Positions 42,278-56,402 are shown, numbered from the stretch's first letter. The stretch: DNA of 62,611 nucleotides from Betaproteobacteria bacterium SG8_39 (GCA_001303445.1 LJTQ01000001.1:1-62611); one strand, 5' to 3'. Numbers and translations: made by a program. The notes: generated by a model not told the origin, from the letters alone.

Positions 42278-43735
42278 ATGGGCAAAGTCACCGGATTTCT
42301 CGAGTATCAGCGCCTCGCTGAGGCTGCCGAGCCGATTGAGGAGCGCAAGAAGCACTACCGGGAATTCGTCCTTCACCTGAGCGACGAGGAGGCGAAAGTC
42401 CAGGGCGCGCGCTGCATGGATTGCGGCACCCCGTTTTGCATGTCGGGTTGCCCGGTGAACAACGTCATCCCCGACTTCAACGACCTGGTGTTCCGGCAGG
42501 ATTGGCAGCAGGCGATCGAGACGCTGCATTCGACGAACAATTTCCCGGAATTCACCGGGCGCGTCTGTCCGGCGCCCTGCGAAGAGGCCTGCGTCCTGCG
42601 CATCAACAATGATGCGGTTGGCATCAAGTCGATCGAGCACGCGATCATCGACAAGGCATGGGAGGCGGGCTGGGTCGCGCCACAACCGGCCTCGCACAAA
42701 ACCGGCAAGCGGGTCGCCGTCGTCGGCTCGGGGCCCGCGGGGCTGGCCTGCGCGCAGCAGCTTGCGCGCGCAGGGCACGAAGCCGTGGTGTTCGAGAAGA
42801 ACGACCGCCCGGGTGGGCTTCTGCGCTACGGTATTCCGGACTTCAAGCTTGAGAAATGGCTGATCGACCGCCGCCTTGCCCAACTGCAGTCCGAGGGCGT
42901 CTCGATCCGGACCAATCACGTGGTGGGCGAGGCACCCGTCGGCGCCGGTAACGCGGACGCCGTGGCGCTCGATCCGGCGACGATCATCGATGAATTCGAT
43001 GCCGTCGTGCTTGCCGGCGGCGCTGAACAGCCACGCGATCTGCCGATCCCCGGGCGCGACCTCGACGGCGTTCACTTCGCCATGCAGTTCCTGCCGTTGC
43101 AGAACCGGCGTGTCGCCGGGGACACGGGGGTCAAGGATCTTTGGGCGACCGACAAGCATGTCGTCGTCATTGGCGGCGGCGATACCGGCTCGGACTGTGT
43201 CGGCACGTCTAATCGGCATGGCGCAAAATCAGTCACCCAGTTCGAGCTGCTGCCGATGCCGCCGGATCCGGAACGCAACCCGGTATGGCCCTACTGGCCG
43301 ACGCGGCTGCGCACCTCCTCTTCACACGAGGAAGGCGTTGCGCGCGACTGGTCGGTGGCGACCAAGGAATTCATCGGCGAGAACGGGCGCGTAACAGCGC
43401 TCAGGGGCGTGCGCCTGGAATGGAGGGACGGCAAGATGCACGAGATTCTCGACTCGGAGTTCACGCTGCCCGCGGATCTCGTGCTGCTGGCGATGGGGTT
43501 CGTCTCCCCGGTTCAGACCCTGCTCGACGCCTTCGGCGTGGCGAAAGATCCCCGCGGCAATGCGCAGGCGACGACCGAGGGCGAAGGCTGTTACGTCACC
43601 TCTGCGCCCAAGGTGTTCACCGCGGGTGACATGCGACGTGGCCAATCGCTCGTCGTGTGGGCGATCCGCGAAGGCCGCCAGTGCGCCCGCGCAGTAGACG
43701 AATTCCTCATGGGGTCGTCGGAACTGCCGCGCTGA
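42278..43735 (+). CDS. gltD: glutamate synthase small subunit
   Basis: 485 aa. Fe-S motif [13 protein letters not shown]...CPVNN, CPAPCE, and FAD/NAD folds [14 protein letters not shown] and [13 protein letters not shown]. Confidence 0.95.
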
Positions 43736-43743
43736 GACACGCG

Positions 43744-44388
43744 ATGGCCGCGCATGCGGGTCCGCGGGTATTCCGCCTGAGCGACGCCGAGCTTGCGGCG
43801 ATTCGCGCGCATGCCATCACGCGAAAGCATCCTAAGAACACCATCATCGTCAGCGAGGGCGACAGCACCGACGGCTTGTTCATCGTGATCGATGGGCGCG
43901 TCAAGGTTTTCGTCAGCGACGAGGACGGGCACGAAGTGGTGCTCGGCACGCACGGACCCGGCGAGTATTTCGGCGAGATGGCGCTCGATGCGGGGCCACG
44001 CTCGGCGTCGGTTGTCACCCTCGAGCCCTGCCAGCTGCTTGTCGTGCCGAAAGAGGACTTTCGCGAGTTCGTCGAGCGCAACCCGGCGTTCGCGTCCAGC
44101 CTGATCGGCAAGCTCATCGCGCGCGTGCGGGCGCTGACCGACAACGTCAAGAGCCTTGCCCTGATGGACGTCTATGGCCGCTTGGCGCGGCTGCTTCTCG
44201 AACTGGCCGAGGAGCGCGATGGCGTACTGATGATCGGCGAGCGGCTCACGCAGCAGGAGATCGCCAGCCGTATCGGCGCCTCGCGCGAGATGGTGAGCCG
44301 CATCCTGAAGGACCTGACGACCGGTGGGTACATCACCCAGTCCCGCGCGGGCATCGTGTTACATCGCCGACCCCCGCTGCACTGGTAA
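43744..44388 (+). CDS. Crp/Fnr-family transcription regulator with cyclic-nucleotide-binding domain
   Basis: Start at ATG 43744, 8 nt after the gltD stop. cNMP pocket FGEMALDAGPRSASVV, C-terminal HTH (TQQEIASRIGASREMVSRILKDL). No N-terminal Cys cluster, so not an FNR-type O2 sensor. Confidence 0.85.
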   Translation: MAAHAGPRVFRLSDAELAAIRAHAITRKHPKNTIIVSEGDSTDGLFIVIDGRVKVFVSDEDGHEVVLGTHGPGEYFGEMALDAGPRSASVVTLEPCQLLVVPKEDFREFVERNPAFASSLIGKLIARVRALTDNVKSLALMDVYGRLARLLLELAEERDGVLMIGERLTQQEIASRIGASREMVSRILKDLTTGGYITQSRAGIVLHRRPPLHW

Positions 44389-44534
44389 TTTGCCGCGAAT
44401 GCTGCATCGCAGCGCCTGCGGCACCGCAAGCGCGAATGTGAATATTCCCGCGCGAGCGTGCGTCACGCTTCACTTCGCCGATCGCGCCCGAAGGCCTACT
44501 GTGGAGCCATGGACAACGCGCCTTGGAGAAGACG

Positions 44535-44633
44535 ATGAACGTCCAAGAAACCGTGATGCTGTTGCTGATGACCGTTCCGAGTTGGGTCGTTGCCGCGGCG
44601 GCGCTGATCACGCTGCTCTTCGCCGGCGCGTAG
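44535..44633 (+). CDS. candidate 32-aa hydrophobic mini-protein (below the ORF-track cutoff)
   Basis: ATG 44535 preceded by GGAGAA (44525-44530). Own translation MNVQETVMLLLMTVPSWVVAAAALITLLFAGA, stop TAG 44631-44633, one predicted TM helix. No homology evidence. Confidence 0.3.
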   Translation: MNVQETVMLLLMTVPSWVVAAAALITLLFAGA

Positions 44634-44688
44634 AATCGATCCGCTTAGTGTTCAGCCCGGGGCGATGGCGCGCCGGGAAGGGGGAAGA

Positions 44689-45663
44689 ATGAATCGGCGC
44701 GACGGCCTCGCGGCTCTGCTCGGCGCGCTCGTAGTCCCGGCCGCTTCGCTCGCCCAGGGCGCGCGAATTCCGAGAATCGGCTACTTGACGCTTGCCCCGC
44801 TCGGCGAAAAACCCTCGGGCGACCGGCTGGCGTTTTTGGAGGGGCTGCGCGAGCTGGGCCATGTCGACGGCAAGACCGTCGAGATCGTCTATCGCTCGGG
44901 CGAGATGAATCTCGAGATTCTCGGGTTTGCGGCGCAGTCGCTCGTCGAGGCAAAGGTCGATGTCATCGCAGTTGCCGGTACGGTCCCAGCGCTCGCCGCA
45001 AAAAAGGCGACCGCGACGATTCCGATCGTCATGATTTTTGCCTCCGAGCCCGTGATCGCCGGCCTGGTTGACGACCTTGCGCGGCCTGGTGGCAACGTCA
45101 CCGGCGTATCGACGATTCAGACCGAGCTTGATCCCAAGCGGCTCGCGATGCTGAAGGAGATCAAGCCCGACATAAGGCGCGTCGCGGCATTCTGGACGCG
45201 CTTTCACCCGTCGCATGAGGCCGAAATTCAGGTCGTCGAAAAAACGGCGCAATCGCTGGGCCTCGTGCTGGAGTCGTACGATGTAACCGATGACCTGCTG
45301 GGTGTTCTGCGCACGCTGGGAGCACGCCCGCCCGACGCGGTCTTCGTCCTTTGGGACGTGCGCACGCTCAGCTACCGGCAGTTCATCATTGACTTCGCGT
45401 TCAAGCACAAGCTGCCGACGAGCATGCCGCTTGAGCCCTACGTGGTCTCGGGCGGCCTGATGTCCTACGGTCCCAACGTGCGGGCGATCTTCCGGCGTAG
45501 CGCCTCGTATGTGCACCGCATCCTGCGCGGCGCAAAGCCGGCCGACCTGCCGGTCGAGCGGCCGGCAAAATTCGACCTCGTGCTGAACATGAGGACCGCC
45601 CGTGCTTTGAAGCTTGAGCTGCCGGCGACGCTGACCCTGCTGGCAGACCGAATAGTCGAGTGA
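44689..45663 (+). CDS. periplasmic binding protein, ABC_sub_bind type, paralog 1 (no transporter partner in window)
   Basis: Start at ATG 44689 after GGGGGAAG (MNRRDGLAALLGALVVPAASLAQG signal). IPRIGYL, ATIPIVM, ARPGGNVTGVS and C-terminal RGAKPADLPVERPAKFDLVLNMRTARALKLELPATLTLLADRIVE are family hallmarks. Confidence 0.85.
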   Translation: MNRRDGLAALLGALVVPAASLAQGARIPRIGYLTLAPLGEKPSGDRLAFLEGLRELGHVDGKTVEIVYRSGEMNLEILGFAAQSLVEAKVDVIAVAGTVPALAAKKATATIPIVMIFASEPVIAGLVDDLARPGGNVTGVSTIQTELDPKRLAMLKEIKPDIRRVAAFWTRFHPSHEAEIQVVEKTAQSLGLVLESYDVTDDLLGVLRTLGARPPDAVFVLWDVRTLSYRQFIIDFAFKHKLPTSMPLEPYVVSGGLMSYGPNVRAIFRRSASYVHRILRGAKPADLPVERPAKFDLVLNMRTARALKLELPATLTLLADRIVE

Positions 45664-46643
45664 ATCGCCGGAAGACACTCGCCGCGTTGTTCGCCCTCAC
45701 CGCAATGCCCGGCTGGCTACGCGCAGAGGGCGCGCGCCGGCCGAAGATCGGCTACCTCGTGCTGGAGTCGATCCGGGAGGCTCCATCCAGGGAGCGGCAG
45801 GCCTTTCTCGACGGCCTGCACAGTTTCGGGCTGGTCGCGGGGAAGTCGCTCGACATCGTCTACCGGTCAGCGGAGAACGAGCCGGAATTTCTGCGTCCGA
45901 TGTGCGAAGAGCTGTTGCGCGAAAACGTCGATGTCCTGGCCACCGTGGGCGCGCTGCCGACGCTGGCCTGCCTGCAGACGACGGGCACGGTGCCGATCGT
46001 CTTTCTCGCGGCGGGCGACCCGATTGGCATCGGGGCGGCCGAGTCACTCGCACGCCCTGGTCGCAACGCGACCGGCGTGAGCTACATCCTGAGCGAGCTG
46101 GCGGGCAAGCGAATCGAGTTTTTGCGCCTTGCCGTGCCCGCCGCCCGGCGGGTCGCCTTCGTCTGGGACCTGACCAATCGAGAGGCGCAGATCGAGGCGG
46201 AGGTTGCGCAGGCCGCGGCGGTGAAGCTCGGCATCCGGACCGACCCGGTGCCGGTCGATTCACAGTCCAGCTTGCACGCGGGCCTCGAGCGCATTGCGCG
46301 CGCGCGACCGGATGCGATTTACATGAGCTTCGCCGCAGGCGTGATCGCGCGCAATCGCACGACGATTGCCGAATTCGGCTTGCGGCATCGCCTGCCGGTG
46401 GTCTCCGGCTGGACATTCATGACGGAGGCCGGCGGACTGTTGAGCTACTCGCCCGATATCCAGGCGATGTTCCGCCGCAGCGCCTACTATGTGGATCGCA
46501 TTATCAAGGGCGCAAAACCCGGTGAGCTGCCGATCGAACAGGCGACAAAGATCGAGCTGGTGGTCAATCTCGCGACGGCGCGAAGGCTGGGCATCACGCT
46601 GCCGCCCGACATCCTGCTGCACGCCGACCGGGTAATCGAGTGA
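45660..46643 (+). CDS. periplasmic binding protein, ABC_sub_bind type, paralog 2
   Basis: GTG 45660 overlaps the previous stop (GTGA). Same motif set (PKIGYL, TVPIVFL, ARPGRNATGVS, KGAKPGELPIEQATKIELVVNLATARRLGITLPPDILLHADRVIE). Confidence 0.85.
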   Translation: MNRRKTLAALFALTAMPGWLRAEGARRPKIGYLVLESIREAPSRERQAFLDGLHSFGLVAGKSLDIVYRSAENEPEFLRPMCEELLRENVDVLATVGALPTLACLQTTGTVPIVFLAAGDPIGIGAAESLARPGRNATGVSYILSELAGKRIEFLRLAVPAARRVAFVWDLTNREAQIEAEVAQAAAVKLGIRTDPVPVDSQSSLHAGLERIARARPDAIYMSFAAGVIARNRTTIAEFGLRHRLPVVSGWTFMTEAGGLLSYSPDIQAMFRRSAYYVDRIIKGAKPGELPIEQATKIELVVNLATARRLGITLPPDILLHADRVIE

Positions 46644-49600
46644 AGAAGCGCGGCAGCATCTACCGCAAGTACGTCGTTCTGGTCGTCGCACTGGTCGGCG
46701 GCGCGCTGCTGGTGAGCGGGCTCGCCAGCATGTACCGCACCTATGTCGAGACGCGGGCCGCACTGCTTGCGGTCGAGCGCGAGCACGCGGTCTCCGCCTC
46801 AATCCGGATCGAGAATTTCGTCGAGAACATCGAGCGGCAGATCGGCTGGACGTCGCTGCCGCAGGTCGTGGCGAATGCCAATAAGCTCGAAACGCGGCGG
46901 TTCGACTACATCAAGCTCCTGCGTCAGGTGAAGGAGATCACCGAGGCGACCTACATCGACGCGCAGGGCCAGGAGCAGGTGCGCGAGTCGCGCATCGGGA
47001 TGTCCGCCTACGGCAGTGGCGCGGACCTGAGCGATGACCCGCGGTTCAAGGCCGCAAGCACCGGGCAGACCTATTTCGGCCCGGTCATCTTCCGCAAGGA
47101 GACCGAGCCGTACATGGCGATCGCCGTGCCGATCGACAAGTATGCCGGTGGCGGAGTGACCGCAGTCGACGTCAACCTGAAATTCATGTGGGAGGTGATC
47201 CAGCGCATCCGGGTCGGCAAGACGGGCTTTGCCTACGTCGTCGACCGGCGGGGGCGCCTGATCGCACATCCCGATATCAGCCTGGTGCTGCAGAAGACGG
47301 ATCTGTCTTCGCTGCCGCAGGTGGGGGCAGCGCTTCCGCGGGAGGGCGTCGCGGCAAGCGCCGTGCCGCGCGTCAGCGAAGCACGTGACCTTGCCGGCAA
47401 GCCGGTGCTGACGGCTTCGGCGCGCATCGAGTCGCTCGGCTGGACGGTGTTCGTCGAGCAATCGGCCGACGAGGCCTACCGGCCGTTGTACGCCTCGTTG
47501 CTGCGCACTGGCGGCCTGCTCATTGCCGGCCTGCTGCTCGCGATGATCGCCGGCTTCATCTTCGCGCGCCGCATGGTCGAGCCAATCCGCGCGCTGCAGG
47601 CGGGTGCGGACGCGCTCGGCGAAGGTGACCTTGCGCGGCGCATCGAGGTGCGCACCGGGGACGAGCTCGAAGCACTCGGCGAGCGTTTCAACGAGATGGC
47701 CAGCAAGCTCGCCGCCTCCTACGCGGGGCTCGAGCGCAAGGTCGAGGAACGCACGCAGGAGCTTCAGGAGACGCTCGGGCGGCAAACCGCAACCAGCGAG
47801 GTGCTGCGCGCGATCAGTGGTTCGCCGACCGACACGGCGCCGGTGTTCGATGTGATCCTGCACCGCGTGGTGGCGCTGTGTGAGGCGGGCGTCGCCGTGC
47901 TCCTGATGTACGACGGCGACCTGCTGCGGCCGGTGGCCGGCGTGAACGTGGTGCCCGAGCTGTTCGAAAAGCTGCGCGCTGCCGAGCTGCGCCCGGCGCC
48001 GTGGAACCCGACGCTGCTTGCGGCGCTCGAGCGGCGTACGGTGCATGCGAGCGATATTCTGGACTTCCCGGAGTTCCGACCGCTGACGGGCGGCACGATG
48101 ACGCGCGACGATCCCTGGCGCACGGCGCTTGCCGTGCCGCTGCTGCGCGAAGGCACACTCACCGGGGTCATCACTGCGTGGCGCAAGGCCGTGCGGCCGT
48201 TCACCGAGAAGCAGATCGAACTGGTGTCGACCTTCGCCGACCAGGCGGTGATCGCGATCGAGAACGTACGCCTGTTCAACGAGACCACCGAGGCGCTTGA
48301 GCAGCAGACCGCCACCGCCGAGATTCTGCGCGCGATCTCGGCCTCGCCGAGCGACGTCGCGCCGGTGTTCGAGGCGATCCTCGACAGCGCCACGCGCTTG
48401 TGCGACAGCCCGCTCTCCGCGGTATTCCGTTACGAAGGCGAGGTCGTCCATCTGGTCGCGCACCGCAACTGGCCGCCCTCCGCAATTGCGGAAATGAAGA
48501 AGTACTACCCGGGGCCACCGAACTCGAAGATGATGAGTGGGCGCACGATTCTCTCCGGGGTGCTGCAGCACGAGGACGACACGCACGCCGATTCGGGCTA
48601 CGACCAGAGGGTGGCGCACAGCGGAGGCTGGCGGCGCATGCTCGGTGTGCCGATCAAGCGCGGCGCCAGGGTTCTCGGTGCTGTCATCGTGGGTTGGCCG
48701 ACACCGGGCAAGACGCCCGAGCGGCAGATGCGGCTGCTCGAAACCTTCGCCGAGCAGGCGGCGATCGCGATCGAGAACGTGCGCCTGTTCAACGAGACCA
48801 AGGAGGCGCTCGAGCAGCAGCAGGCCTCGGCCGAGGTCCTCGGCGTCATCAGCAGCTCGGTGGCCGATACCCAGCCGGTGTTCGACAAGGTGACGGAAAG
48901 CTGCCAGCGGCTGTTTGCAGGTCTCAACGTCGGCATCAACGTGGTGCGTGACGATGGCCAGCTTTACCTCGCCGCCTTCTCGGGGCCTGCGCGGGAGGCC
49001 CTCGAGGGTGTTTTTCCGGTACCGCTCAGCCGGGACTCGGGGTCGGGCGCGGCGATCCTGCAGCGCCAGGTGCTGCACTACCCGGACGTCGAGGCGGTGG
49101 ATGTGCCCGAGTTTGCGCGGCGCGGGTCACGTGCGGCCGGAAACCGGGCAGTGATCTTTGCGCCGATCCTGTGGGAGGGCAAAGGCATCGGCGCGATTCA
49201 CGTCGGGCGGGCACGCACGGGCCCGTTTTCCGACAAGGAGATCGCGCTGCTCAGGCATTTCGCCGACCAGACCGCGATCGCGATCCAGAACGCGCGCCTG
49301 TTCCGCGAGATCGAGGACAAGAGCCGGCAGCTCGAGATCGCCAACAAGCACAAGTCGGACTTTCTCGCCAACATGTCGCATGAGCTGCGTACGCCGCTCA
49401 ACGCGATCATCGGCTTCTCGGAAGTGCTGACCGAGAAAATGTTCGGCGAAGTGAACGAGAAGCAGCTCGACTACCTGCAGGACATCCATTCCTCCGGCAA
49501 GCACCTGCTCTCGCTGATCAACGACATTCTCGACCTGTCGAAAATCGAGGCCGGGCGGATGGAGCTCGATCTGGTTCAAGTCAACGTGCCCGATACGCTG

Positions 49601-50047
49601 TCGAGCGCGCTGACGCTGGTGCGCGAGCGCGCACAGAACCACGGTATCCAGCTCGCGCTCGAGATCGACCCGAAAGTCGGCGTCATCGAGGCCGATGAGC
49701 GCAAGGTGAAGCAGGTCGTGCTGAACCTGCTGTCGAACGCGGTCAAATTCACGCCAGACGGAGGCCGGATCGCGATGCGTGCGACACTCGATACGGACCA
49801 TGTGGCAGTTGCGGTTCATGACACCGGCATCGGCATCGCGCCAGAGGACCAGGACGCGGTGTTCGAGGAGTTCAAGCAGGTCGGGCGCGACTACACCAAG
49901 AAAGCCGAGGGTACGGGTCTCGGCCTTGCCCTCACCAAGCGCATCGTCGAGTTGCACGGCGGACGCATCTGGCTCGAAAGCGCGCCGGGCAAGGGCTCGA
50001 CCTTCACGTTTACACTTCCGCTGACCCAGGAGAAGGGGGCGCCATGA
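46640..50047 (+). CDS. sensor histidine kinase: TM - Cache-like periplasmic domain - TM - HAMP - three GAF modules - HisKA - HATPase
   Basis: 1135 aa, GTGA overlap with paralog 2. TM1 VVLVVALVGGALLVSGL, Cache motif GFAYVVDRRGRLIAHPD, TM2 GGLLIAGLLLAMIAGFIF, HAMP (PIRALQAGADALGEGDLARRIEVRTGDELEAL). Three repeats are delimited by AIAIENVRLFNET.EALEQQ.A.AE. H-box SHELRTPLN, G-boxes HDTGIGI and GTGLGLALT. Confidence 0.9.
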   Translation: MKKRGSIYRKYVVLVVALVGGALLVSGLASMYRTYVETRAALLAVEREHAVSASIRIENFVENIERQIGWTSLPQVVANANKLETRRFDYIKLLRQVKEITEATYIDAQGQEQVRESRIGMSAYGSGADLSDDPRFKAASTGQTYFGPVIFRKETEPYMAIAVPIDKYAGGGVTAVDVNLKFMWEVIQRIRVGKTGFAYVVDRRGRLIAHPDISLVLQKTDLSSLPQVGAALPREGVAASAVPRVSEARDLAGKPVLTASARIESLGWTVFVEQSADEAYRPLYASLLRTGGLLIAGLLLAMIAGFIFARRMVEPIRALQAGADALGEGDLARRIEVRTGDELEALGERFNEMASKLAASYAGLERKVEERTQELQETLGRQTATSEVLRAISGSPTDTAPVFDVILHRVVALCEAGVAVLLMYDGDLLRPVAGVNVVPELFEKLRAAELRPAPWNPTLLAALERRTVHASDILDFPEFRPLTGGTMTRDDPWRTALAVPLLREGTLTGVITAWRKAVRPFTEKQIELVSTFADQAVIAIENVRLFNETTEALEQQTATAEILRAISASPSDVAPVFEAILDSATRLCDSPLSAVFRYEGEVVHLVAHRNWPPSAIAEMKKYYPGPPNSKMMSGRTILSGVLQHEDDTHADSGYDQRVAHSGGWRRMLGVPIKRGARVLGAVIVGWPTPGKTPERQMRLLETFAEQAAIAIENVRLFNETKEALEQQQASAEVLGVISSSVADTQPVFDKVTESCQRLFAGLNVGINVVRDDGQLYLAAFSGPAREALEGVFPVPLSRDSGSGAAILQRQVLHYPDVEAVDVPEFARRGSRAAGNRAVIFAPILWEGKGIGAIHVGRARTGPFSDKEIALLRHFADQTAIAIQNARLFREIEDKSRQLEIANKHKSDFLANMSHELRTPLNAIIGFSEVLTEKMFGEVNEKQLDYLQDIHSSGKHLLSLINDILDLSKIEAGRMELDLVQVNVPDTLSSALTLVRERAQNHGIQLALEIDPKVGVIEADERKVKQVVLNLLSNAVKFTPDGGRIAMRATLDTDHVAVAVHDTGIGIAPEDQDAVFEEFKQVGRDYTKKAEGTGLGLALTKRIVELHGGRIWLESAPGKGSTFTFTLPLTQEKGAP

Positions 50048-50418
50048 GCGTAGTCCTGATCGTCGAAGACAACGACAAAAACATGAAGCTCGCGCGCGAC
50101 GTGCTGCAGGCCAAGGGGTATTCGACGCTCGAGGCAGTGACCGGCGAGGACGGCGTGCGGATCGCCAAAGAGCAGTGCCCCGATCTCGTGTTGATGGATA
50201 TCCAGCTGCCGGGCATCAGCGGCATCGATGCACTCAAGGCGCTGAGGAGCGATGCGCAGACCGCGAAGATCCCGGTTGCGGCGCTGACCGCCTCGGTGAC
50301 GCCGACCGACCGCTCGCAGATCGCGGCGGCAGGGTTCGACGCGTTCCTTTCGAAGCCGATCAATTTGAAGGAATTCCTCGAGACGGTAAAACGCCTGACG
50401 GAGGGTGAGCGCGCGTGA
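50044..50418 (+). CDS. stand-alone receiver (CheY-like) response regulator
   Basis: 124 aa, ATGA overlap with the kinase stop. VLIVEDNDKN, phospho-acceptor context DLVLMDIQLPG, SKP lysine. Confidence 0.9.
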   Translation: MSVVLIVEDNDKNMKLARDVLQAKGYSTLEAVTGEDGVRIAKEQCPDLVLMDIQLPGISGIDALKALRSDAQTAKIPVAALTASVTPTDRSQIAAAGFDAFLSKPINLKEFLETVKRLTEGERA

Positions 50419-51515
50419 GTCACAAGGTTCTCGTGGTCGACGACACACCGGCGAACGTCAAGCTGCTCGCTGACCTGCTCAAGGTCAAGGGCTATGAGGT
50501 GGCGACGGCGGCGAACGGCGAGGAGGGGCTCGCCAAGGTCGCCGCCGAGCACCCGGACATCGTGCTGCTCGACATCATGATGCCGGGCATGTCGGGCTAT
50601 GACGTGTGCCGCACGATTCGCGCAAACCCAGCCACCGCGCTGCTGCCGGTGGTGCTGGTGACCTCGCTCGACCCCAACCAGGAGCGGGTGAAGGGCATGG
50701 AGGCAGGGGCCGACGATTTTCTGCAGAAGCCGATCAACCAGCAGGAACTGTTCGCGCGCGTGAAGTCGCTGTTGCGCGTAAAGTCGCTGCAGGACGAGGT
50801 GAAGCAGCAGGCGGAGAAGCTCGCCGAGTGGAACGCGATGCTCGAGGCGAGGGTGAAAGAGCAGGTGGATCAGCTCGAGCGTCTCGGACGGCTGAAAAAC
50901 TTCTTCTCGCCGCAGCTCGGTGAAGCGATTCTTGCCGGCGGCGGCGAAGATCTGCTGAAGACGCACCGCCGCGAGGTGAACGTCGTGTTTCTCGATCTGC
51001 GCAGGTTCACCGCCTTCATCGATAACGCAGAGCCGGAGGAGGTGATGGAGCTGCTGCGTGAGTACCACGCCGCAATGGGCAAGCTGGTGCTGGCGCACGG
51101 CGGTACGCTCGAGCGCTTCGCCGGCGATGGCATGATGATCTTCTTCAACGACCCCGTGCCGATGGACAAGCCCGCCGAGTTGGCGGTGAAGATGGCGCTC
51201 GAGATGCAGCAGGCATTCCTGCCGATCGGGCAAAAATGGACCAAGCGCGGCTACGATCTCGGACTCGGCATCGGCATCGCGCAGGGTTATGCGACCTGCG
51301 GCGCGATCGGCTTCGAAGGGCGCTGGGACTATGCGGCAATCGGCAATGCGACCAACCTGGCCGCGCGTCTGTGTGCCGAGGCCGCGGGCGGCGAGATTCT
51401 GATCGATCGCAAGACGATGGCCGCAGTGGACGGTGCGTTCCAGTTCGCCGAGGCGGGGCCGTTCGAGCTCAAGGGCTACAGTCAGCCGGTACCGGCCTAT
51501 CGCGTGACCGAGTAA
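50415..51515 (+). CDS. response regulator with class III adenylate/guanylate cyclase output domain
   Basis: 366 aa, GTGA overlap. Receiver (VLVVDDTPANV, IVLLDIMMPG, QKP), coiled-coil linker, cyclase homology domain (VVFLDLRRFT, FAGDGMMIFFN, WDYAAIGNATNLAARL). Confidence 0.88.
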   Translation: MSHKVLVVDDTPANVKLLADLLKVKGYEVATAANGEEGLAKVAAEHPDIVLLDIMMPGMSGYDVCRTIRANPATALLPVVLVTSLDPNQERVKGMEAGADDFLQKPINQQELFARVKSLLRVKSLQDEVKQQAEKLAEWNAMLEARVKEQVDQLERLGRLKNFFSPQLGEAILAGGGEDLLKTHRREVNVVFLDLRRFTAFIDNAEPEEVMELLREYHAAMGKLVLAHGGTLERFAGDGMMIFFNDPVPMDKPAELAVKMALEMQQAFLPIGQKWTKRGYDLGLGIGIAQGYATCGAIGFEGRWDYAAIGNATNLAARLCAEAAGGEILIDRKTMAAVDGAFQFAEAGPFELKGYSQPVPAYRVTE

Positions 51516-51544
51516 CCGTCCCACATGGAACCGGGAGGGCTGCG

Positions 51545-51850
51545 ATGCAACTGACAAGCATGCTAAAGTGCAGTGCGTTGATCGCCGGATGTCTGCTCGT
51601 CGTATCGGCGACTGCAGACGAGCGCACGGTACTGTTCACCATTCCGAAAATGAGCTCGGCGGAATGTCAGGTTGTGGTCACCGGCGCGCTTAAGGGCGTC
51701 GAAGGCGTGCGCAAGGTTTCGGCGGCGTATTCGACCAAGAGCGCCTATGTGACCTACGAGGACCGGAAAACGAATCTCGAGGCTTTGAAAAAGGCGACCG
51801 CGCGCGAAGGCTATCCGGTCTCCGACACGGTCGAGACGCGCAGGCAGTGA
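51545..51850 (+). CDS. secreted HMA-fold (heavy-metal-associated-like) small protein with degenerate metal motif
   Basis: ATG 51545 after GGGAGGG. 101 aa. Signal peptide MQLTSMLKCSALIAGCLLVVSATA. The core TVLFTIPKMSSAECQVVVTGALKGVEGVRKVSAAYSTKSAYVTYED...LKKATAREGYPV fits the beta-alpha-beta-beta-alpha-beta HMA pattern, but GMTCxxC is replaced by KMSSAEC (one Cys). Confidence 0.55.
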   Translation: MQLTSMLKCSALIAGCLLVVSATADERTVLFTIPKMSSAECQVVVTGALKGVEGVRKVSAAYSTKSAYVTYEDRKTNLEALKKATAREGYPVSDTVETRRQ

Positions 51851-52830
51851 AGCTGTCGGCCGCCATCGGCATCTGGCTCGCCGCGACGCTTGCCGGCACC
51901 TCGGTGCCGTCGACCGCGCTCGCGCAGGGCGCTCAGCGGTTGGCGTTCTTCACGTCGAGCGAAACGCCGACGGCGATACGCCAGCGCGACGCCCTGCTGG
52001 AAGGCCTGCGCGGACAGGGCATCGTGCCGGGAAAGGATCTGCGGCTGATCGAGGTCATCGCCGATCACGATTTTCGTCGATTGCCCGAGCTGGCGACGAA
52101 GCTGATGGAACAGAATCCGGACGTGATTGTGACGGCGTATGCCGGGGCGACGCTCGCCGCGATGCACGTCGCCGGCGATACGCCGGTGGTGTTCGCCGCG
52201 GTGAGCGGCCCGGTAGGCAACGGCATGGTGAAGAGTCTGGCGCATCCAGGCGGCAGCGCGACCGGGGTGGCGACGAACTATGCGGGCCTGGGCGGCAAGC
52301 GGCTCGAGTTGCTGAAGGACGCGTTTCCCAGCGTCTCCCGCGTCGCGCTGCTTTACCAGGAGAAGTACGCCTCGGCCTGCGAGCTCGAAATCAGCGAGGT
52401 CGTGGCAGCTGCGGGGCAGCTCGGGCTCGAGATAAAGCATTTCTCGGTCGTCGGGGGAGGTGCGCTCGGCGACGCGTTCAAGCGCATGAAGGCGCAGGGC
52501 GCGAATGCACTGTACGTGCCGACCTCGCCAATCAGCGCGTACATGCCGACGATCGTCCTGCTGGCGCGAAAGCATGGGCTGCCGGCGATATACGACAACC
52601 AGCGCTACGTCGAGGAGGGTGCCTTGATGTCCTTCGGCGCCGACGAAGCCGAAAGCTTCCGTCGTGCGGCACGGTACGTGGCGCGCATCCTGCGCGGCGC
52701 GAAACCGGGCGCGATGCCGGTCGAGGTGCTCGAGCGCGTGCGCCTCATCATCAACCTCAAGGAGGTGCGCGCGCGCAACATCGAGCTTCCGCCGTCGATC
52801 ATGACGCGGGCGGACGCGTTCGTCGAGTAA
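51847..52830 (+). CDS. periplasmic binding protein, ABC_sub_bind type, paralog 3
   Basis: GTG 51847 overlaps the previous stop. Signal peptide, then DTPVVFA, AHPGGSATGVA and RGAKPGAMPVEVLERVRLIINLKEVRARNIELPPSIMTRADAFVE. Confidence 0.85.
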   Translation: MKLSAAIGIWLAATLAGTSVPSTALAQGAQRLAFFTSSETPTAIRQRDALLEGLRGQGIVPGKDLRLIEVIADHDFRRLPELATKLMEQNPDVIVTAYAGATLAAMHVAGDTPVVFAAVSGPVGNGMVKSLAHPGGSATGVATNYAGLGGKRLELLKDAFPSVSRVALLYQEKYASACELEISEVVAAAGQLGLEIKHFSVVGGGALGDAFKRMKAQGANALYVPTSPISAYMPTIVLLARKHGLPAIYDNQRYVEEGALMSFGADEAESFRRAARYVARILRGAKPGAMPVEVLERVRLIINLKEVRARNIELPPSIMTRADAFVE

Positions 52831-52845
52831 GGCCTGCGGCGCGCG

Positions 52846-54444
52846 TCAGGCGGCCTGCGCGCGCCAGCCCTCGAGCGCCTGCAGGTACTCGTCGGGCCGT
52901 TCCACCAGGATCTTCGGTCGGCCGGCGAAAACCTCGCCGCTTTCCGCATCGAGACAGATTTCCTCGCCTTCGGCAACGAAGGTGCTGCCGACGCGCAGCG
53001 CGCGGCGGACGGGGTCGACCGAAAGCGCGCCGCAACCGACGACGCAGGGCTTGCCGAGCTGACGGGCGACCACCGCCGCATGCGCGGTGCGGCTGCCGCG
53101 TACGGTGAGTACCCCGGCGCAGTTGGCGATGGCGCCGATATCCTCGGTCGACAGGTCTTCGCGCACCAGGATCACCGGCACCGCGCGCCGCCCGAGCCGC
53201 TGCGCGGCGGCGGCGTCCAATGCCACCCGCCCTGCGGCAACGCCGAGCCCCGCCGGGATGCCAAGCGAGAGCGGCACGAGGCCTTCGCGCGCCGCGATGC
53301 GCACGCGCTGGATCGATCCGAGATCCAGATCGGCGACGCGTTCCAGCGCTTCCCGCGGCGTGATCAAGCCGGCGTGGGCAAGCTCGACCGCGATACGCAA
53401 TGCAGCCCAGGGCGTGCGCTTGCCCGTGCGCGTCTGCAGCAGGTAGAGGCGTGCGTCCTGCACGGTGAACTCGAACTCCTGGACGTCGCGGAATTCCTGC
53501 TCGAGCGCGCGCCGCGTCTCGGCGAGATTCGCGGCCACCGCGGGCAGCACGCGCGTCATGCGCTCGGCGTCGCCGCCGGTGCTGCGACCGGAGACCACAT
53601 CCTCGCCCTGACTGTTGAACAGGAAGTCGACGTAGAGCCGGTTCTCTCCGGTCGTCGGGTCGCGCGTGAACGCCACGCCGGCGCCCGAGGTGCCGCCCGC
53701 GTTGCCGAATACCATGCGCTGCACGGTGACCGCGGTGCCGACATCGCCGTCGATCGCGTTCTGGCGTCGGTATTCGACCGCACGCGCGCTCATCCAGGAC
53801 TGGAACACTGCGCCGACCGCGGCCTCGAGCTGCTCGTAGGGGTCCTGCGGGAACGCGCGACCGACGTGCTCGGCGTAGATCTCGAGGTAGCCCTGGGTAA
53901 GCGACTGCAAGGCGCGGAAATCAAGCTCGCGCGCTGCTCTGACGCCCTCGCGCGCGAGCTGCCGCTCGAGCGCGTCGCGAAACGGCGCGGGATCGACCTG
54001 ATGTACGACTTCCGCGAACTGCTGCACCAGCCGGCGATACGAGTCCCAGGCCAGGCGCGGGTTTCCCGTCAGCCGCAGCAGGCCGCGCAGGGTGGCGTCG
54101 CACAGGCCGATGTCGAGCAGCGTGTCCATCATTCCCGGCATCGACACCGGCGCGCCCGAGCGCACCGAGACGAGCAGCGGCCGCCGCGGCGAGCCGAATC
54201 CGAGGCCGCTGGCCTGCTCGATGCCGGCGAGCGCGTCGCGCAACAGGTTGCGCAGCGTGGCGCGCGTGGCCTCGACATCGGTGAACCAGGCCCTGCAGGT
54301 CGCCGTGCCGAGCACGAAGGCCTCCGGTACGGCAAGGCCGAGGCGCGCGAGGCGCAGCAGGTTATGCGCCTTGAAGCCGATGTCCTCGGGAACGGCGAGC
54401 GCCGCATGCGGCGCGATGCTGTAGAGGTGCTGGGCCGCGCTCAT
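52846..54444 (-). CDS. PPDK/PEP-synthase-like protein: nucleotide-binding ATP-grasp (PPDK_N) plus phosphohistidine swivel domain, lacking the PEP/pyruvate TIM-barrel
   Basis: 532 aa. GFKAHNLLRLARLGLAVPEAFVLGT, TRDPTTGENRLYVDFLFNSQGEDVVSGRSTG and swivel motif VRGSRTAHAAVVARQLGKPCVVGC (His codon at 53080-53082). The ORF ends about 60 aa after the swivel domain. Confidence 0.8.
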   Translation of the reverse strand: MSAAQHLYSIAPHAALAVPEDIGFKAHNLLRLARLGLAVPEAFVLGTATCRAWFTDVEATRATLRNLLRDALAGIEQASGLGFGSPRRPLLVSVRSGAPVSMPGMMDTLLDIGLCDATLRGLLRLTGNPRLAWDSYRRLVQQFAEVVHQVDPAPFRDALERQLAREGVRAARELDFRALQSLTQGYLEIYAEHVGRAFPQDPYEQLEAAVGAVFQSWMSARAVEYRRQNAIDGDVGTAVTVQRMVFGNAGGTSGAGVAFTRDPTTGENRLYVDFLFNSQGEDVVSGRSTGGDAERMTRVLPAVAANLAETRRALEQEFRDVQEFEFTVQDARLYLLQTRTGKRTPWAALRIAVELAHAGLITPREALERVADLDLGSIQRVRIAAREGLVPLSLGIPAGLGVAAGRVALDAAAAQRLGRRAVPVILVREDLSTEDIGAIANCAGVLTVRGSRTAHAAVVARQLGKPCVVGCGALSVDPVRRALRVGSTFVAEGEEICLDAESGEVFAGRPKILVERPDEYLQALEGWRAQAA

Positions 54445-56402
54445 GCCGCCATCACCTCATTCAGCACATGGTCGCGCAGCATCAGCGCGGCGTGCATCAG
54501 CGCGTCCGCCGCCGCTTCCAGGTTGCGGGAGATTTCCGCCAGCACGAACAGCGCGCGCGGCTCGCCGGTACCGCTCAACGCGGCGGTTTTCACCTTGCGG
54601 TTCGCGTCGTCGCTCTGTCGTTCGATCTGCACGATGCGATGCACCGACTCGAAAAAGTCCTGCACATCGCCGCGCGGCACGCCGCGCCGCACCACGCGCG
54701 CCGCCTCGACCGCCTTGATGTACTCCTGCGCGCCTTCGACAACCTGGCCGGCGAGTTCGGTGAGCGCTTCGACGGCCTCGTCGGCATGGGCATCCGCGCT
54801 GGCTGCTTCGCGCAGCAGCGTGAGGTGGAACGCTGCATCCTCCAGCTCGTCGGCAATGTCGTCGCTCGATTCGACGATGCGGCACACGCTCGCGGCCTGC
54901 TCGTTGTGCTGCGCCAGGTCGCGTGCGAGGTTGACCACGCCGTCGGCGAGGTGCTCCCAGCGCTTGGCACGCTCGGCGTTGCGTGCAAAACGCTCGACGG
55001 CGCCCGGCAGCTTCGCGTTCAGCAGGCAGTCGCGCACGCCGCTCGCGATTTCGAGCGTCAGCGCCATCTGCTCGGAGGCATGGTCCAGCGCCGTCTGCTG
55101 AACCGAATGCATGCGGCCGAACAGCTCGCCGCGCAGCTCATCGAGCACCAGGCTCACCGGCTGGCCGGCGACCAGCATCTCCGCCGAGATGCGCAGCGCG
55201 AAACGCAGGAATTCCACGGCCCCGTCGCGTCCCAGCACGTCGTCGAGGCGTGCGCCGAACGCGGTCGGTGCCTTGCCGAGCGAGGCCAGTGCGTCGAACA
55301 CCGCCTGCTCGGCGCCGATGCGCAGGAACGCCATGTGGCCGACATCGTTCTCGGCCGCCCAGCGCAGCAACTTGAGAGCTTCGTTCTTGCGTACCAGCAT
55401 GCGCAGGCGCTTGCGTGCCCGGTTCCAGTCGATGAGGAAAACGAGCCGCGAGCCGAGCCAGGCGAGGTAGGCATCGAGCTCGTCAGACGACGCGGCGCGT
55501 AAACGGCCGAACGCCAGGTGATAGACCCCGTCCTCGAAACCGGCGTCGCTCTTCGAGCGGGTGTCGTTCCAGTCGACGTTCCAGCGCTTGAGCAGGCTCT
55601 GCAGGAACATCAGCCGCGGCAAGTGGACGTCGGTGTAGATCAGCGTTGCGTCCAGCCCCTCGACATGCACTACCAGGACATGCGCGTCGGTCGTGCCGAT
55701 GTCGTTCTGCAGCACCAGGCGGTGCGCCGCGCGCGTTGCCGTCGTCGCGAGTCCCGGGTGGTCGAATTTGAGCGCGCGTGTTGCGTTGACCCCGCGCATG
55801 AACGCGGCGACGCGCGGTGCGTCGCCGGCATCGAGCCCGTAGGCCAGCGCGCCGTCGATATTCTCCGACGCGATCGAGGCCTGCAGGGCGTTCAGCCCCT
55901 TGTGCAGATCCATCACCAGCAGGTGCAGGCTGCCGCCCACGGCGGCTGCATCGCGCGCACCGCGGGTCATGCGCGCGATCGCGCTGGCGTCGGCAAGCCC
56001 GTCGACCAGCCAGGGATCGGCGAGGCAGGCGGCAAGCCGGTCGGCCCAGGCGGGGGTGCGCGGATCAGCCGTCGCCTCGAACGGCGCCAGCATTTCGTGC
56101 ATCGCGGTCTTGATGCGCGCCGCGACGGTGGCTGCGTGCGGCAGCCGGTATCGCCCCGGCCCGGCCGTCACCGCCCCGCCGATGAGTTCGTCGAGCGCCG
56201 AGTCGGGTTCGCCAGCGGAGGCGCGCTCTCCCTTGAGGTCGGGTCGCTCCGCCTCGGGCTGCTCGACGTGCGCGACCGCGAGTTGCAGCAGGCTGAAGTA
56301 GTACTTGACGCGGTCGTTGGCGGCGAGCGCGGCATTGATCAGCCCGGGCAGCAGCAGGCGCTGCTCGCCCAGCACGTCGAGAATCCGATCCTTCTGCGGC
56401 AT
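54441..56402 (-). CDS. uncharacterised 653-aa protein; C-terminal ~200 aa resemble PhoU_div/DUF47 helical repeats
   Basis: Clean 653-aa ORF whose stop overlaps the start of the PPDK-like gene (ATGA at 54441-54444). No TM segments seen. The C-terminus shows the two-fold DUF47-type pattern (WEHLADGVV...DDIADELEDAAFHLTLL and IERQSDDANRKV...ISRNLEAAADALMHAALML). I do not recognise the N-terminal 450 aa. Confidence 0.6.
   Translation of the reverse strand: MPQKDRILDVLGEQRLLLPGLINAALAANDRVKYYFSLLQLAVAHVEQPEAERPDLKGERASAGEPDSALDELIGGAVTAGPGRYRLPHAATVAARIKTAMHEMLAPFEATADPRTPAWADRLAACLADPWLVDGLADASAIARMTRGARDAAAVGGSLHLLVMDLHKGLNALQASIASENIDGALAYGLDAGDAPRVAAFMRGVNATRALKFDHPGLATTATRAAHRLVLQNDIGTTDAHVLVVHVEGLDATLIYTDVHLPRLMFLQSLLKRWNVDWNDTRSKSDAGFEDGVYHLAFGRLRAASSDELDAYLAWLGSRLVFLIDWNRARKRLRMLVRKNEALKLLRWAAENDVGHMAFLRIGAEQAVFDALASLGKAPTAFGARLDDVLGRDGAVEFLRFALRISAEMLVAGQPVSLVLDELRGELFGRMHSVQQTALDHASEQMALTLEIASGVRDCLLNAKLPGAVERFARNAERAKRWEHLADGVVNLARDLAQHNEQAASVCRIVESSDDIADELEDAAFHLTLLREAASADAHADEAVEALTELAGQVVEGAQEYIKAVEAARVVRRGVPRGDVQDFFESVHRIVQIERQSDDANRKVKTAALSGTGEPRALFVLAEISRNLEAAADALMHAALMLRDHVLNEVMAA

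Follow-up and report, generated by a model that had tools for sequence, protein, structure and literature searches.

A predicted periplasm-to-second-messenger signalling cassette with PF04392 solute-binding proteins in Betaproteobacteria bacterium SG8_39

The window analysed here is a stretch of 62,611 nucleotides (nt) from Betaproteobacteria bacterium SG8_39 (LJTQ01000001.1:1-62611). It carries a chain of genes in which three solute-binding proteins (SBPs) are combined with a sensor histidine kinase, a stand-alone receiver, a receiver fused to a class III nucleotidyl cyclase (receiver-cyclase) and a small secreted protein with an HMA fold (Table 1). An ORF listing returned seven open reading frames (ORFs) on the plus strand at 44689-52830. 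They are linked by 4-nt overlaps that can be read directly (GTGA at 45660, 46640, 50415 and 51847; ATGA at 50044), and the sole intergenic gap in the chain (29 nt, 51516-51544) contains the motif GGGAGGG. This layout is exactly that of the original prediction, which had been made from the sequence alone, and all Pfam domains anticipated there were found in the seven proteins. The inventory was correct for these seven genes but had overlooked two genes upstream of them, one for a Crp-family transcription factor and one for a micro-protein. Overlaps of 4 nt are routine in high-GC operons and unremarkable on their own; here they support a presumed co-translation of the chain.

Table 1. Genes of the predicted signalling locus and of its upstream flank in the SG8_39 window
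Feature	Position (nt)	Strand	Basis
Crp-family transcription factor (cNMP_binding + HTH_Crp_2)	43744..44388	+	Pfam
32-aa single-helix membrane micro-protein	44535..44633	+	RBS, conservation, HMM
SBP1, periplasmic PF04392 solute-binding protein, distal, dispensable copy	44689..45663	+	Pfam E 1.4e-40
SBP2, PF04392 solute-binding protein, conserved kinase-proximal copy	45660..46643	+	Pfam E 3.6e-39
Sensor histidine kinase: TM1, dCache_1, TM2, HAMP, 3x GAF, HisKA, HATPase_c (1135 aa)	46640..50047	+	Pfam, hydropathy
Stand-alone receiver, 124 aa	50044..50418	+	Pfam Response_reg E 3e-25
Receiver + coiled-coil linker + class III nucleotidyl cyclase, 366 aa	50415..51515	+	Pfam Response_reg E 2e-32, Guanylate_cyc E 1e-20
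Secreted MerP-like HMA-fold protein, 101 aa, clade-specific accessory	51545..51850	+	Pfam HMA E 8e-9
SBP3, PF04392 solute-binding protein, clade-specific accessory	51847..52830	+	Pfam E 9.6e-39
aa, amino acids; RBS, ribosome-binding site; HMM, hidden Markov model; TM, transmembrane segment.

The transcription unit most likely starts one gene earlier than SBP1, at the ORF of the micro-protein. The product of its 32 codons, MNVQETVMLLLMTVPSWVVAAAALITLLFAGA, forms a single hydrophobic helix, and a GGAGA ribosome-binding site is located 6 nt 5' of the ORF. In the related loci with which the window was compared (designated L001 etc.), the micro-protein is called as a gene in L001-L004, with the ORF conserved in L001 and L004, and the same peptide is found in L090 and L095. 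An HMM built from five copies gave additional, non-seed matches in the corresponding position of L037 (E 6e-9), L050 (E 2e-6) and L018 (E 0.01); in the last two loci the crp gene is divergent. A regular-expression search detected no copy in L005, L008 or the remaining SBP arrays. Because copies recur at the equivalent position across loci, we consider the micro-protein real and conserved; its gene probably opens the operon. SBP1 itself most likely starts at the ATG at 44689, which is preceded by GGGAAGGGGGAAG. A promoter scan of the unit yielded no promoter-like match, the terminator scan gave two terminator-like matches within coding sequence, which is fewer than expected by chance, and an Rfam scan of 43500-53200 at E <= 1 revealed no riboswitch and no other RNA family.

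All three SBPs belong to Pfam family PF04392 (E 1e-39 to 1e-40). Their pairwise identity is 35-41%, and each has a signal peptide, that of SBP1 being twin-arginine-like. The closest solved structures to SBP2, whose stop codon overlaps the start of the kinase gene (GTGA), are 3lkv (E 2e-31), 3lft and 6hni. PF04392 proteins of solved structure bind Trp, Tyr or Phe, which makes small organic nutrients plausible as ligands of the SBPs. The TrpX-type proteins 3lft, 3lkv and 6hni share the Pfam family and fold-level homology with the window SBPs (E 1e-21 to 1e-31), but the latter score far under the cut-off of the TrpX equivalog model of NCBIfam (110-128 bits, with SBP1 at 118, versus 390) and are encoded in arrays beside a kinase gene. 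A cognate permease and ATPase in the same locus, as in ABC transporters of the TrpX type, was likewise not found. Pfam scans of the 57 compositionally coding ORFs across the 62-kb window contained no ABC permease or ATPase, and a tblastn search of the window with one ABC ATPase and one permease gave no match even at E <= 1, so that an earlier statement to this effect holds. Nor does an ABC ATPase or permease gene adjoin any of the more than 35 cassette-linked SBP genes in related loci.

The kinase contains a dCache_1 domain (residues 52-273, E 3e-21), a HAMP domain, three GAF units (405-542, 573-712 and 743-882) and the HisKA and HATPase_c domains, with the H-box (HELRTPLN) and the G-boxes present. 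Hydropathy analysis revealed hydrophobic segments at approximately 10-32 and 288-312, and because these two segments flank the dCache domain, this domain should be periplasmic. Pfam and hydropathy thus agree with the original description of a kinase with a Cache-like periplasmic domain and three cytoplasmic GAF modules. When the three GAF sequences were read by eye, the NKFDE motif of GAF domains that bind cyclic nucleotides (cNMP) was not noticed. Between one and more than six GAF units are present in homologues of the kinase, most of which stem from metagenome-assembled genomes of soil and sediment labelled Casimicrobiaceae or Burkholderiales. The homologues range in length from 796 aa with one GAF unit up to about 1980 aa (L007 and L095 included). 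The varying number of GAF units suggests frequent tandem duplication and loss of a unit of about 170 aa, which consists of the GAF domain plus a linker.

The distribution of these genes was surveyed by an alignment scan with the receiver-cyclase, restricted to one genome per species, and by tblastn with the window proteins. The scan gave at least 530 relatives, of which the best 80 loci were examined. For 71 non-redundant loci there was enough upstream DNA to count the triad of kinase, receiver and receiver-cyclase. In 57 of them, genes for a kinase core and a stand-alone receiver lie immediately before that of the receiver-cyclase, contiguous and co-oriented with it. Variovorax brevis J22R133 (L053) has a relative of the receiver-cyclase alone, and no kinase, receiver or SBP gene adjoins it in the same orientation. 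The triad is found in Burkholderiales, Rokubacteria/Methylomirabilota, Nitrospira, Chloroflexi, Actinomycetota and Alphaproteobacteria, and L018 and L047 have more than one triad each.

A PF04392 gene directly upstream on the same strand was found in 15 of the 24 loci whose kinase has a homologous dCache+HAMP sensor, versus 1 of the 43 loci whose sensor is different or unknown (Fisher p = 5e-8, a value that overstates independence because the loci are related by descent). The contig of this lone positive locus is cut. Eight of the dCache-type loci have one PF04392 copy, three have two, one has three, two have four and one has six, and the gene order recurs in these loci without adjoining ABC genes. 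We regard this dependence of SBP presence on the sensor type of the kinase as the best evidence obtained here for a functional link, as yet a predicted one, between the SBPs and the dCache domain. The copy number of one to six and the lack of adjoining ABC genes fit the idea that the SBPs are recruited, expandable ligand adaptors. As to the arrangement of the copies, L010, L012, L015 and L038 have 3-6 PF04392 genes in tandem immediately before a homologous kinase gene, with six linked SBP genes in L015, which belongs to a closed genome (OZ257137.1). Extra copies follow the receiver-cyclase gene in L012 and L043, and L006 has one kinase-adjacent copy and three more about 5-9 kb upstream.

The residues required for phosphotransfer were inspected in both receivers, which are 41% identical. 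In the receiver-cyclase the acidic pair (D9, D10), the phospho-acceptor Asp (D53), the Thr (T83) and the Lys (K105) are conserved across the family; in the stand-alone receiver, the acidic, Thr and Lys positions appear to be present when the sequence is read without an alignment. Phosphotransfer that branches to the two receivers, as had been proposed originally, has its basis in gene order, namely in the triad kept in 57 of 71 loci. Alternatively, the stand-alone receiver may be neither a parallel branch nor a sink, but the first acceptor in a His-Asp-His-Asp phosphorelay that reaches the receiver-cyclase via an unlinked Hpt protein. In NCBIfam, hybrid kinases and their receivers (HrmK, TorS, BarA, ArcB) give the best scores with the kinase core and the small receiver, and the pair thus resembles a split hybrid kinase. 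However, the Pfam scans of the window contained no Hpt domain (the related loci were not screened for it), and at 41% identity the two receivers could both be phosphorylated directly by one kinase. We therefore consider such a relay improbable and prefer direct phosphorylation of both receivers.

The catalytic domain of the receiver-cyclase has Pseudomonas aeruginosa CyaB as its closest solved structure (3r5g, E 2e-34), followed by Cya2 and CyaC (1wc0, E 1e-17); CyaB, the CyaC of Spirulina/Anabaena and the window cyclase all have class IIIb-like catalytic domains. Nearly all of 89 homologues (47-95% identity) retain the metal-binding residues D194 and D238 and the transition-state residues N314 and R318. 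At the two positions that specify the substrate, the window cyclase has R234 and A307. At the first position the 89 homologues have R (63) or H (20), but never K or E, and at the second A, G, S or T. In contrast, CyaB and CyaC have Lys/Thr at these positions and the guanylate cyclase Cya2 has Glu/Gly. According to the canonical rule, K/D specifies ATP, and E together with C, S, T, H, A or G specifies GTP (PMC4215837). With Arg/Ala in the window and Arg or His in the family, this rule cannot classify the enzymes and the product is uncertain. Most likely the cyclic nucleotide made by the predicted cyclase is either cAMP or cGMP.

The Arg or His in place of the adenine-specifying Lys could also mark a separate enzymatic subfamily with a non-canonical product, i.e. 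cGMP, a cyclic pyrimidine or a mix. In favour of this idea, 83 of the 89 homologues have R or H at the first position, and the A, G, S or T at the second is as in guanylate cyclases (PMC4215837). Moreover, the cCMP-forming EaPycC binds CTP via R142, four residues before its metal-binding D146 (PMC11224242), and R234 holds the same position relative to the second metal-binding Asp of the window cyclase. The linked Crp, too, has Leu-Thr where the E. coli receptor CAP has the base-contacting pair Thr-Ser (T127/S128). On the other hand, the catalytic domain matches the adenylate cyclase CyaB better than it does the PycC models, and Arg is able to stand in for Lys as a hydrogen-bond donor to adenine N1. 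Furthermore, the Thr of the Crp is located at the position of S128 in CAP, where cAMP receptors, and also the cAMP/cGMP receptor Clr, typically have Ser or Thr. Taken together, we think a product of this kind is quite unlikely. Membership in the Pycsar defence systems was considered separately and rejected: the PycC models match at the generic class III level (E 3e-19), which is weaker than the match to CyaB, and the neighbour that binds cNMP is a DNA-binding Crp and not a TIR or transmembrane effector.

The crp gene starts 8 nt past the gltD stop (window 43735-43744), and its product matches cNMP_binding (E 8e-28) and HTH_Crp_2 (E 3e-15). The best NCBIfam model is CRP, although the score is under the cut-off (128.7 versus 266 bits), and the closest solved structures are Mycobacterium tuberculosis Crp, E. 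coli CAP, Vfr and Clr. The phosphate-ribose residues FGE and RS (CAP E72, R82, S83) and the R-E-x-V-x-R recognition helix (REMVSR) are present in the window Crp and kept in nine cassette-linked orthologues. By these sequence features the window Crp resembles true cyclic-nucleotide receptors more than FNR-type proteins. The orthologues (53-87% identity) share a C-terminal RRPP/RKPPxxW motif and the Leu-Thr signature and adjoin the cassette in at least three arrangements: on the same strand after gltD in the window, L001-4 and L095, and on the same strand elsewhere in L037; divergently, at unrelated chromosomal sites, in L005, L008, L018 and L050; and downstream of the cassette in L021. Because the linkage recurs in rearranged forms, a functional connection between Crp and the cassette can be argued. 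With about 8000 proteins at E < 1e-20, the Crp subfamily is very large, and, as described below, the gene persists beside gltD without a cassette. For these two reasons, Crp probably has a general role and is not dedicated to the cassette. We would rather regard it as the cyclic-nucleotide receptor of the cell, with the cassette as one of several cyclase inputs. Other cyclic-nucleotide effectors sit beside such cassettes as well: in the Casimicrobiaceae locus L006 (16155-20446), a second, large cyclase (Guanylate_cyc-AAA-TPR) comes after the cassette, together with a fusion of an MscS-type channel and a cNMP-binding domain.

On balance we lean towards reading the locus as a signalling cassette that leads from the periplasm to a second messenger, via the SBPs, the dCache kinase, the receiver-cyclase, a cyclic nucleotide and Crp. 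The whole mechanism is inferred from sequence and gene order. PF04392 SBPs that have bound their ligand would attach to the periplasmic dCache domain and modulate how the kinase phosphorylates itself. SBP2, the copy next to the kinase, is the main candidate for such docking, and SBP1 and the MerP-like/SBP3 pair may serve as optional extra inputs. The three GAF domains would bring in cytoplasmic inputs, and the micro-protein probably acts with the kinase at the membrane, although this is speculative. As suggested by the conserved gene order, the kinase would phosphorylate the stand-alone receiver, which is probably a phosphate sink or modulator if it is not a relay step, and the receiver-cyclase. 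By analogy with CyaC and PleD-type receiver enzymes, phosphorylation would activate the class III cyclase dimer, with the coiled-coil linker converting receiver dimerisation into activity. The repeated linkage and the intact nucleotide-binding residues suggest that the Crp-subfamily factor then reads the cyclic nucleotide and alters gene expression.

Several observations weigh against this pathway. At the output end, the Arg/Ala pair at the specificity positions leaves not only the product but also the activity of the predicted cyclase uncertain. In the cassette-less relatives L094 and L097, crp still lies beside gltD, and in the lineage of the window its adjacency to the cassette could just reflect an insertion hot spot. 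A search for TGTGA-N6-TCACA in the window and nine crp-cassette intergenic regions gave 7 matches where 11.8 were expected, none of them in the crp-operon spacer, and the crp-operon intergenic regions have no palindrome common to the loci. In the absence of a CAP-like operator or a shared palindrome upstream, autoregulation or feedback of Crp on the operon is unsupported.

At the input end, nine of the 24 dCache-type cassettes have no SBP gene directly upstream; these are mainly from Rokubacteria, plus L007, L024 and L028, and L017 has one downstream. The kinase can thus exist without a linked SBP, and its dCache domain may bind the ligand directly. Accordingly, the originally proposed role of the SBPs as ligand adaptors gains from an adjacency that is conserved, specific to dCache sensors and variable in copy number, but the SBPs are not obligatory. 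An alternative explanation is that the SBPs are transport or scavenging proteins whose ABC partners are encoded elsewhere in the genome, beyond the 62-kb window, and that they are part of the operon as co-regulated genes or as targets, while the kinase senses the ligand directly via its dCache domain. Such distant ABC partners may exist. PF04392 is after all a family of ABC substrate-binding proteins whose solved members bind aromatic amino acids, dCache domains usually bind small ligands directly (PMC8050422), and the nine cassettes without an SBP gene directly upstream are in line with this explanation. However, it accounts less well for the lack of ABC genes both in the window and next to the cassette-linked SBP genes, for scores far under the TrpX equivalog cut-off, for an SBP presence that follows the sensor type of the kinase, and for the overlap of the SBP2 stop with the kinase start. 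We consider it rather unlikely, though the most serious competitor to the adaptor role in the signalling cassette.

SBPs of 13 families are known to stimulate receptors, and dCache-like sensors are among their commonest partners (LuxQ, HptS, ChiS, MbaA and ScrC); PF04392 is absent from the families listed (PMC8050422). The window locus resembles LuxP/LuxQ of Vibrio and HptA/HptS of Staphylococcus aureus in that an SBP gene lies beside the gene of a dCache-type kinase without a transport partner in the locus (PMC8050422). As in these systems, the gene of a secreted SBP is adjacent to and co-oriented with that of the kinase, and the extracytoplasmic sensor lies between two transmembrane helices. 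It differs from them in the SBP family (Peripla_BP_4 and others there, PF04392 here), in having 1-6 paralogous SBPs per kinase, in the 1-3 or more GAF domains of the kinase and in its output, which is a receiver-cyclase here and a DNA-binding regulator or an Hpt relay there. In NspS/MbaA and ScrB/ScrC of Vibrio, a periplasmic SBP controls a dCache-like receptor that sets a nucleotide second messenger, as is proposed here. In those cases, however, the receptor itself is a c-di-GMP enzyme, whereas here a two-component step leads to a class III mononucleotide cyclase. CBP/ChiS is a further example of an SBP-stimulated dCache-like receptor (PMC8050422).

On the output side, the closest parallels are found among receiver-regulated cyclases and Crp-linked cyclase genes. 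Cyanobacterial CyaC is a receiver-regulated class III cyclase that is activated by phosphotransfer to its receiver. It unites receivers, kinase and cyclase in one polypeptide, whereas three genes are used here, and its Lys/Thr pair, shared with CyaB, contrasts with the Arg/His and Ala, Gly or Ser of the window's family. The gcyB-gcyC-cgrA genes of Rhodospirillum centenum and the cyclase/Clr loci of Sinorhizobium meliloti also link cyclase genes to the gene of a Crp-family receptor. Unlike the window locus, they have no SBP or two-component input. The R. centenum operon is under feed-forward control through a perfect CAP-type site, and none was found at the window operon.

The original prediction had been unable to match its combination of genes to a described system. 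This holds for the literature we found, in which no paper describes the kinase/receiver/receiver-cyclase triad or ties PF04392 to signalling, but SBP-stimulated dCache receptors as such are an established class (PMC8050422). Every individual part of the cassette is an ordinary domain family, and it is the combination that has not been described before. New here are PF04392 as the SBP family, which moreover occurs in arrays, a mononucleotide cyclase reached from SBP input through two-component signalling, the micro-protein and the unusual specificity residues of the cyclase. The cassette offers a testable role for the orphan, expanded PF04392 SBPs as co-sensors of dCache kinases; if this is true, they would be the fourteenth receptor-stimulating SBP family. 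Judging from gene content, the predicted chain from the periplasm to gene expression (SBP, kinase, receiver-cyclase, cyclic nucleotide, Crp) is widespread among uncultured Burkholderiales from soil and among related groups. It also draws attention to a large cyclase subfamily with Arg/His and Ala/Gly/Ser that fits neither the adenylate nor the guanylate rule. One might go further and suppose that the Arg/His receiver-cyclases form a large, phylum-spanning subfamily that serves a housekeeping pathway, not defence, by making cGMP or a cyclic pyrimidine, with PF04392 arrays as interchangeable adaptors of dCache domains and with a dedicated Leu-Thr subgroup of Crp and the micro-protein completing the circuit. 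This extension is highly doubtful at present.

Comparison with close relatives helps to separate the core of the cassette from its accessories. In the lineage of the window, the order of genes is pilQ, aroK, aroB, gltB, gltD, crp, a variable region, glmU and glmS. The full set of genes occupies this slot in the window and L001-3. L004 has the micro-protein, one SBP, kinase, receiver and receiver-cyclase, but lacks the MerP-like gene, SBP3 and a pair of genes for a PPDK-like protein and a PhoU_div protein. In L088, whose contig begins just upstream of the kinase gene, a kinase with two GAF units is followed by receiver, receiver-cyclase and the MerP-like/SBP3 pair, without the PPDK-like pair. 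L095/96 have one SBP and a kinase with one GAF unit. L094 and L097 have no cassette, and crp is followed by glmU, with an MgtC gene in between in L097. From these contents, the conserved unit of the lineage consists of the micro-protein, the kinase-proximal SBP, kinase, receiver and receiver-cyclase, to which SBP1 and the MerP-like/SBP3 pair are add-ons. The orthologue of SBP2 is kept in L004 (73% identity), and L090 and L095 have a single kinase-adjacent SBP gene in the position of SBP2. A full-length copy of SBP1 was not found in L004, L090 or L095, and SBP1 is thus dispensable there.

The HMA-like protein of the original prediction does have the HMA fold, and its assignment can be refined. 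It has a signal peptide, and its best solved structure is MerP (1osd, E 4e-13), with which it shares a secreted HMA fold of about 72 residues at 30-40% identity. MerP is also its best model in NCBIfam, with a score below the cut-off (67.8 versus 92.55 bits). Unlike MerP, it has the motif KMSSAEC with a single Cys in place of GMTCxxC, its gene and a PF04392 gene form a pair that follows the cyclase gene, and there are no mer genes in the window. Nine homologues were found (67-90% identical), and all ten members have KMS[ST]A[ED]C. Since the first Cys of GMTCxxC is Ser or Thr in all of them, one metal-binding Cys has been lost in this family. The gene always sits between the receiver-cyclase gene and a PF04392 gene, and it is always paired with SBP3 through a 4-nt overlap (GTGA in the window). 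L001-3 and L088-93 have the pair, whereas L004, L095 and all distant cassettes lack it; on this distribution it is a lineage-specific add-on. Three SBPs, an HMA protein and a cyclase, which the original prediction had named as a combination, are thus not conserved as such: the MerP-like/SBP3 pair is clade-specific and SBP1 can be missing. The exact seven-gene set is a lineage-specific elaboration of a widespread core.

Some further features of the region were recorded. The crp-glmU interval is a variable slot that holds the cassette, an MgtC gene or neither. The spacer between crp and the micro-protein gene (44400-44470) contains a conserved TGCTGCA..TGCAGCG, a short hairpin right after the crp stop, and a second conserved block, GTGAAtATTCCC; these blocks could be a terminator, promoter or operator. 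Convergent to the cassette lies a pair of minus-strand genes, 52846-54444 and 54441-56402, which is present in L001-3 and L091 and absent from L004 and L088. The former encodes a short PPDK-like protein with PPDK_N and the mobile domain only (437.7 versus 456 bits for the model PRK05878), the latter a protein of 653 aa with a weak match to PhoU_div only. Finally, an FAD-linked oxidase in the window is split over two overlapping plus-strand ORFs (3645-4916 and 4853-6571). The first ORF has FAD-oxidase_C positions 2-117; positions 129-248 fall in the second ORF, which runs on into a 4Fe-4S domain, and the split looks like a frameshift or sequencing error in one GlcD-like gene.

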